A stretch of 18,130 nucleotides of DNA from a virus (taxonomy: Duplodnaviria > Heunggongvirae > Uroviricota > Caudoviricetes): positions 1 to 18,130 of the IMG/VR virus record IMGVR_UViG_2671180283_000002. The stretch is one strand, 5' to 3'. How positions within the stretch are numbered: the stretch's first letter is position 1; the number at the start of each line of letters is the position of its first letter. The notes beneath the pieces were generated by a model. That model did not search any database and had not been told where the DNA came from. It saw only the letters and a list, made by a program, of their open reading frames with translations. Shown in pieces: positions 11,750-12,684 of this stretch. The translations under genes and the position numbers were made by a program.

Positions 11750-12684
11750 AAATCCACCCCGTAAATCCAGTCAGTGTTTGTCAGGTCGAGTTTTGGTTTT
11801 CCAGCTGTCACGCCAGCCTGTTGCTTGTTACGGTTGATTTCGAGTTGGGTCCACTTGTCGCGGAGTTTGGCCGGACTTAGCACGTTACCGGACCAGAAGT
11901 TGTCCTGGCATGCCCAGCGGAACAGCACGCACATGTCGCGGTGGTTACGTCCGTCACGTTCACGCATCAGGCGGATATCGTTAGCCCACCCTGCAAAATT
12001 CGGTTTTCTGGCTGATGGTGCGATGGTCTTCACCATGTCAAACATCCACTCTGCGGCGGTCAGGTCTTCTGCTGTTCCCCACTTGCTGCCGCTCTGAATT
12101 GCAGCATCCGGTTTAACCACAGAAAGATCGTTTTCTGGCTGGTCAGAGGATTCGCCAGAATTCTCGGACGAATAATCTTTTCTTTTTTCTTTTGTAATAG
12201 TGTCTTTTGTGTCCCCCTGTTTTGAGGGATAGCAATCCCCTAATTTGAGGGATGTTTTATCCCTCGTTTTAGGGGATTTTCCCTCGTTTTGAGGGATGTC
12301 CCTCATTTTAGGGGAACCTCCCTCGTTTTGAGGGATGCACCATTCTGAGATGTTTTTATTTGGTCCAAACATGCCGCCTTGCTGCTTGATAATATTCATT
12401 CTGACGAGTTCTAACTTGGCTTCATTGCACCGTTTGACAGGTAACTTTGTAATCTCGCTAAGTTGAGAATCGGTGATTCTGTCCATTGGTTTATTCCACC
12501 CATAGGTTTTACGCAGAATGGCAAGCAGCACTTTAAACTGTCGCTTGGTCAGATCTGCGCCTGAATAAGCCTCAATCAGCATATTTGATAGTCTGGCGTA
12601 ACCATCATCGAGATCTGCCACATTACGCTCCTGTTCGGCAAAGTTACCTCTGCCGAAGTTGAGTATTTTTGCTGTATTTGTCAT
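11746..12684 (-). CDS. O: Replication initiator O (312 aa), lambda-type with a 13-residue insertion in the iteron-encoded linker
   Basis: Translation matches lambda O except for an extra PQNEGGSPKMRDI-like segment; SD AGGAG 6 nt before ATG 12684. Confidence 0.95.
   Translation of the reverse strand: MTNTAKILNFGRGNFAEQERNVADLDDGYARLSNMLIEAYSGADLTKRQFKVLLAILRKTYGWNKPMDRITDSQLSEITKLPVKRCNEAKLELVRMNIIKQQGGMFGPNKNISEWCIPQNEGGSPKMRDIPQNEGKSPKTRDKTSLKLGDCYPSKQGDTKDTITKEKRKDYSSENSGESSDQPENDLSVVKPDAAIQSGSKWGTAEDLTAAEWMFDMVKTIAPSARKPNFAGWANDIRLMRERDGRNHRDMCVLFRWACQDNFWSGNVLSPAKLRDKWTQLEINRNKQQAGVTAGKPKLDLTNTDWIYGVDL
12213..12337. repeat. ori iterons inside O: six ~19-bp O-binding repeats (ATCCCTCAAAACGAGGGA-like)
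   Basis: Six tandem near-palindromic units read from the minus strand, followed at lower coordinates (about 12150-12212) by an AT-rich stretch. Lambda has four iterons here as I recall. Confidence 0.85.

Follow-up and report, generated by a model that had tools for sequence, protein, structure and literature searches.

The mosaic lambdoid prophage analysed here very probably carries, inside its gene O, a six-iteron origin of replication of the lambda type, in the form known from phage 933W, that would operate through the O-some mechanism set out below; no sequence feature counts against this explanation. The six-iteron origin and the 13 extra residues of the O protein are real but already known, as they are annotated in a 1999-era reference record and have been tested in the literature. 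The window, that is, the whole stretch of viral DNA under analysis (18,130 bases), holds the two replication genes expected of such an origin, an initiator gene with an N-terminal Phage_rep_O domain and, immediately downstream of it, an intact helicase-loader gene:

11746-12684, minus strand: gene O, replication initiator of 312 aa, an open reading frame with the Pfam domain Phage_rep_O at residues 22-115 (PF04492, E=1.1e-35)
11048-11749, minus strand: gene P, helicase loader partnering O, 233 aa, with the Pfam domain Phage_lambda_P (PF06992, E=1.1e-61)

Scanning of the whole 18,130-base window with the iteron motif TCCCYYAAAWYNRGGGGA, with up to two mismatches permitted, returned six matches against 0.05 expected, a number that none of 200 shuffles reached. 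All six are 18-bp units on the minus strand at about 12212-12336, within gene O, and there are no further matches anywhere else in the window. They are imperfect palindromes of the TCCCTCAAAACGAGGGA type, placed in the middle of the initiator gene, with an AT-rich region directly beside the last of them:

12318-12335, minus strand: iteron 1, TCCCTCAAAACGAGGGA, the unit most distant from the AT-rich region
12298-12315, minus strand: iteron 1', TCCCCTAAAATGAGGGA, a diverged copy of iteron 2
12279-12296, minus strand: iteron 1'', identical to lambda ITN1
12259-12276, minus strand: iteron 2, identical to lambda ITN2
12235-12252, minus strand: iteron 3*, TCCCTCAAATTAGGGGA, differing from lambda ITN3 by a single base (A in place of G)
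12212-12229, minus strand: iteron 4, identical to lambda ITN4
12160-12211, minus strand: AT-rich region adjoining iteron 4, 71% A+T compared with 53% for the whole O gene, the same as in lambda

The spacings between successive units are 20, 19, 20, 24 and 23 bp, and five of the six units fall in one family in the repeat search. Iteron 1 has the same sequence as the third unit (iteron 1''), while iteron 1' is the sole unit without an exact counterpart in lambda (the single substitution in iteron 3* aside). The AT-rich region at 12160-12211 is presumed to be the unwinding site. In this regard, the initial annotation had read six minus-strand units at about 12213-12337, and the motif scan, the repeat searches and the mapped annotation of 933W all agree with that reading.

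Two of the six units are accounted for by a short segment that lambda does not have:

12299-12337, minus strand: 39-bp in-frame segment absent from lambda, one copy of a tandem duplication, encoding O residues 117-129 (IPQNEGGSPKMRD)

The second copy lies at 12260-12298 and is 90% identical to the first according to the repeat search; Tandem Repeats Finder describes 12260-12337 as 2.0 copies of a 39-bp period with 89% matches. The two copies, CATCCCTCAAAACGAGGGAGGTTCCCCTAAAATGAGGGA and CATCCCTCAAAACGAGGGAAAATCCCCTAAAACGAGGGA, are mismatched at 4 of their 39 positions. Three of these differences fall in one spacer codon between the first two units, where GGT (Gly) at 12316-12318 is set against AAA (Lys) at 12277-12279, and the fourth lies inside an iteron (ATG against ACG, Met against Thr). 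The same spacer codon reads AGT, one step from GGT, in five IMG/VR loci. Judged by its sequence, the 39-bp insertion is a duplicated pair of iteron 1 and iteron 2, placed on the side of the array that faces away from the AT-rich region, and it stays in frame because 39 bp amount to 13 codons. The duplication is not recent, since its copies are about 10% diverged (4/39) while the O gene of the window is 97.4% identical to that of lambda. Under the arrangement favoured by published footprints (PMC7466680), iteron 1 would belong to the additional 39 bp. In the O protein, the first inserted residue is number 117, two residues past the end of the Pfam DNA-binding domain (22-115), and IPQNEGGSPKMRD is equivalent to the PQNEGGSPKMRDI segment of the initial annotation because an Ile is repeated. 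A sequence search of solved structures with O gave no match.

Comparison with lambda supports the idea of an expanded lambda-type origin. The lambda record J02459 annotates four iterons (ITN1-4, 39034-39118), the number given in the initial annotation; the counter-argument raised at that time, namely that lambda might also have six units here, does not apply. Lambda and the window share iterons 1, 2 and 4, the AT-rich region and the O-P-ren gene order. In a three-way DNA alignment of the window, lambda and 933W, a single 39-bp gap appears in lambda, directly upstream of ITN1, and with this insertion the window reaches its six units; across the array and the AT-rich tract only two other differences from lambda are found, the G to A change in iteron 3 and one substitution past the AT-rich tract. 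The open reading frame and the lambda record confirm the lengths of O, 312 aa in the window against 299 aa in lambda. The lambda gene matches in two pieces spanning 900 bp, and the protein alignment contains one 13-residue gap, which corresponds to the insert and bears out the claim that 13 residues were added to O, together with the substitutions G17E, L37I and S282G (lambda numbering). As a consequence, the O protein of the window has E17, I37 and G295 where lambda has G17, L37 and S282.

The similarity to 933W is closer still. Its O gene is 100% identical to that of the window at the nucleotide level over all 939 bp, as are the O genes of Stx2 converting phage I, PA28 and several Stx1a-converting phages, and P27, H-19B, VT1-Sakai and BP-4795 have a nearly identical origin and O. 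The RefSeq record of 933W (NC_000924 / AF125520) contains six 'ori iteron' binding sites for protein O, which map to 12213-12336 of the window. The two arrays are the same, with 126 nt between their flanks: the six iterons, their spacings, the AT-rich region and the O residues E17, I37 and G295 are all shared, whereas the surrounding prophage is a different mosaic. In line with this, Kozlowska et al. (2020; PMC7466680) described six iterons (1, 1', 1'', 2, 3* and 4) in P27 and 933W compared with four in lambda, as well as an O protein that gains 13 residues in both phages and carries G17E and L37I, with S282G in 933W, so that 933W O has the same three substitutions as the window. The window has each of these features, its six iterons arising through the 39-bp insertion relative to lambda. 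The statement in the initial annotation that such an origin had been reported for Stx-phage replicons was thus well founded. In the article, the original comparison is credited to Nejman et al. (2009; pmid 19797917), and the differing dependence on host factors to Nejman et al. (2011; pmid 20829283).

By analogy with lambda and 933W, O would bind the iterons as dimers by way of its N-terminal domain, winding the DNA into an O-some; the neighbouring AT-rich region would be destabilised, and the C-terminal domain of O would bring in P along with the host helicase DnaB. The two iterons farthest from the AT-rich region would have arisen by tandem duplication of the 39-bp unit formed by iteron 1 and iteron 2, and the same event would have lengthened O by 13 residues after its DNA-binding domain because the origin lies in coding sequence. 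The published experiments, performed with the 933W O protein and the P27 origin (PMC7466680), suggest a division of labour within such an array. The O proteins are able to bind every single iteron, but DMS footprints on a six-iteron template show strong protection only on the four iterons nearest the AT-rich region, the two distal ones being bound weakly; nevertheless, mutation of iteron 1 or iteron 1' brought transformation by a P27-derived plasmid below detection. The core O-some would accordingly comprise the four iterons nearest the AT-rich region, with the two distal iterons acting as weak auxiliary sites that would yet be required for replication or establishment of the plasmid. The same p27 plasmids with mutated iterons 1 and 1' represent, in essence, an already published version of the mini-replicon test proposed with the initial annotation.

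These data also qualify the suggestion that the number of iterons affects O-some assembly: only four iterons are strongly footprinted, and the Stx O proteins bind more weakly than lambda O, with part of this weakness put down to the amino-acid substitutions that O carries and not to how many iterons there are (PMC7466680). From sequence likeness, we infer that the present prophage copy would behave like the 933W/P27 replicon in terms of O binding and replication support, although the transcriptional context of pR, cro and cI differs from that of 933W because the window is mosaic.

It could be argued that the extra 39 bp act mainly through the protein, the 13 residues altering the packing of the O-some or the O-P geometry while the added DNA sites remain nearly passive. 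The position of the insert, right after the DNA-binding domain, and the weak footprints on the distal iterons are consistent with this idea, as is the suggestion of Kozlowska et al. (2020) that the extra residues form a 'space barrier' leading to a looser O-some that is less dependent on transcriptional activation. We nevertheless consider it unlikely. As we read the primer table of that study, the mutations introduced into iteron 1 are synonymous (ATC CCT ... GAG GGA to ATT CCT ... GAA GGA) and still abolished transformation by the P27 plasmid, which argues that the DNA site itself is required. The mutation of iteron 1', again as read from the primers, also alters one codon of O (AGG to AGT), so for that unit the DNA-level and protein-level effects are not fully separated.

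The distribution of six-iteron origins was assessed in a sample of 120 IMG/VR loci with an exact iteron 1, in which the distance between conserved flanks was measured. This distance was 87 nt, corresponding to four iterons, in 93 cases, 126 nt, corresponding to six, in 20, and 60 nt in one, counts that take in the lambda, 933W, L003 and window sequences. Origins with two, three or five iterons, as suggested by a strict regular expression, were rejected: the expression missed variant units, and the only flank distances found were 87 nt, 126 nt and the single one of 60 nt. The latter belongs to locus L046 (minus strand, offsets 7063-7361 of the reverse complement), where an array with three iterons apparently reflects the loss of DNA between iteron 1'' and iteron 4 from an origin that had six units. 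Its reading as a working three-iteron variant was discarded, since small indels break the O frame and indicate a decayed copy or a poor assembly. At L038 (about 5840-5925), a lambda-type origin ends inside iteron 4 and is followed by unrelated sequence, which suggests a breakpoint left inside the origin by recombination or deletion.

On a broader scale, a 74-nt query specific to the six-iteron junction had full-length matches in 363 of the 5426 complete E. coli genomes (~7%). A query with the lambda-type junction matched about 1157 records at >=95% identity, a count that is approximate and depends on that cut-off because six-iteron origins align with four mismatches in the 90-95% band. In the phage collection, which is Stx-biased, the six-iteron junction is present in 72 records, nearly all of them named Stx phages (H-19B, VT1-Sakai, BP-4795 and P27 included). 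Six iterons also occur in diverged O genes: that of L010 (about 6490-6625) encodes a protein matching the window O at 65% identity across 217 aa, and that of L121 (about 3275-3405) one with 74% identity to it across the N-terminal 175 aa and no detectable similarity further on. Both encode a matching duplicated peptide (e.g. FPQNEGKSPKVRDIPQNEGKSLKTGD). The diverged O genes of L027 and L119 have four iterons.

Against this background, the notion that the array of six units has no functional meaning, being either a neutral duplication or an artefact of slippage or assembly, is highly improbable: slippage is common in tandem repeats, and four iterons are enough for lambda, with fewer than four sufficing in vitro (Wickner and McKenney, 1987, as cited in PMC7466680), but the breadth of the array among complete E. 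coli genomes and phage records, the divergence between its two copies, its retention in frame in diverged O genes and the abolition of plasmid establishment by a distal iteron mutation (PMC7466680) largely refute it.

The six-iteron, 933W-type origin of the window resides in a prophage that is mosaic throughout, its best phage match covering 62% of the window and its best E. coli genome match 78%. The genes relevant to its classification are the following:

3872-4495, minus strand: Q antiterminator gene
485-2335, minus strand: SASA/DUF6645 esterase gene
2877-3635, minus strand: 252-aa ORF, the only ORF between the Q and esterase genes, matching phrog_1521 (unknown function)
13420-14142, plus strand: cI repressor gene

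Stx phages carry tRNA genes and stxAB in the interval between the Q and esterase genes; in the window this interval (2336-3871) contains neither stx ORFs nor tRNA genes, and tRNA genes are absent from the window as a whole. Within the window, the prophage carries a 933W-type replicon without a toxin cassette, and in this respect it departs from the Stx-converting phages. Carriage of stx, however, is a trait of the phages used to study this origin, not of the origin type as such. The related L003 prophage, from the pig E. coli strain UTME-10, shows the same arrangement between Q and esterase genes, with no stx annotated there, and has a six-iteron origin.

Two further ORFs of this prophage deserve mention. 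One, of 617 aa (6981-8834, plus strand), is transcribed against the direction of the nin-region genes around it and matches phrog_9230 (unknown function) end to end over its residues 28-617; judging by where it lies and how it is oriented, it may be a moron or accessory gene. The other, of 332 aa (14213-15211, plus strand), is located directly downstream of cI, at the position of rexA/rexB in lambda, matches phrog_6191 (unknown function) and is a candidate for an exclusion gene expressed in the lysogen. Pfam and PADLOC scans of the unannotated neighbouring ORFs, these two included, gave no match.

Replication of Stx-type lambdoid phages is reportedly needed for efficient Shiga toxin production, and Stx replicons reportedly differ from that of lambda in their dependence on host factors and transcriptional activation (PMC7466680). 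Few differences in sequence underlie this contrast, and the six-iteron origin is among them. For the window itself, the value of our findings lies in a correct annotation, its replicon being of the 933W type. Since six-iteron arrays are present in prophages lacking stx as well as in diverged O genes, this state is neither confined to Stx phages nor to a single O lineage, and the occurrence of the same origin in stx-free prophages, as well as in about 7% of the complete E. coli genomes, argues against treating it as a marker of Stx phages. The distribution data add a modest new point to an origin that is itself known: on balance, they lean toward the six-iteron origin being an old and widespread alternative form of the lambdoid O-type origin, occurring both in non-Stx prophages (the window and L003) and together with diverged O proteins that have a different C-terminal domain (L010 and L121). 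If this is true, the usual view of six iterons as an adaptation of Stx phages would need to be revised.
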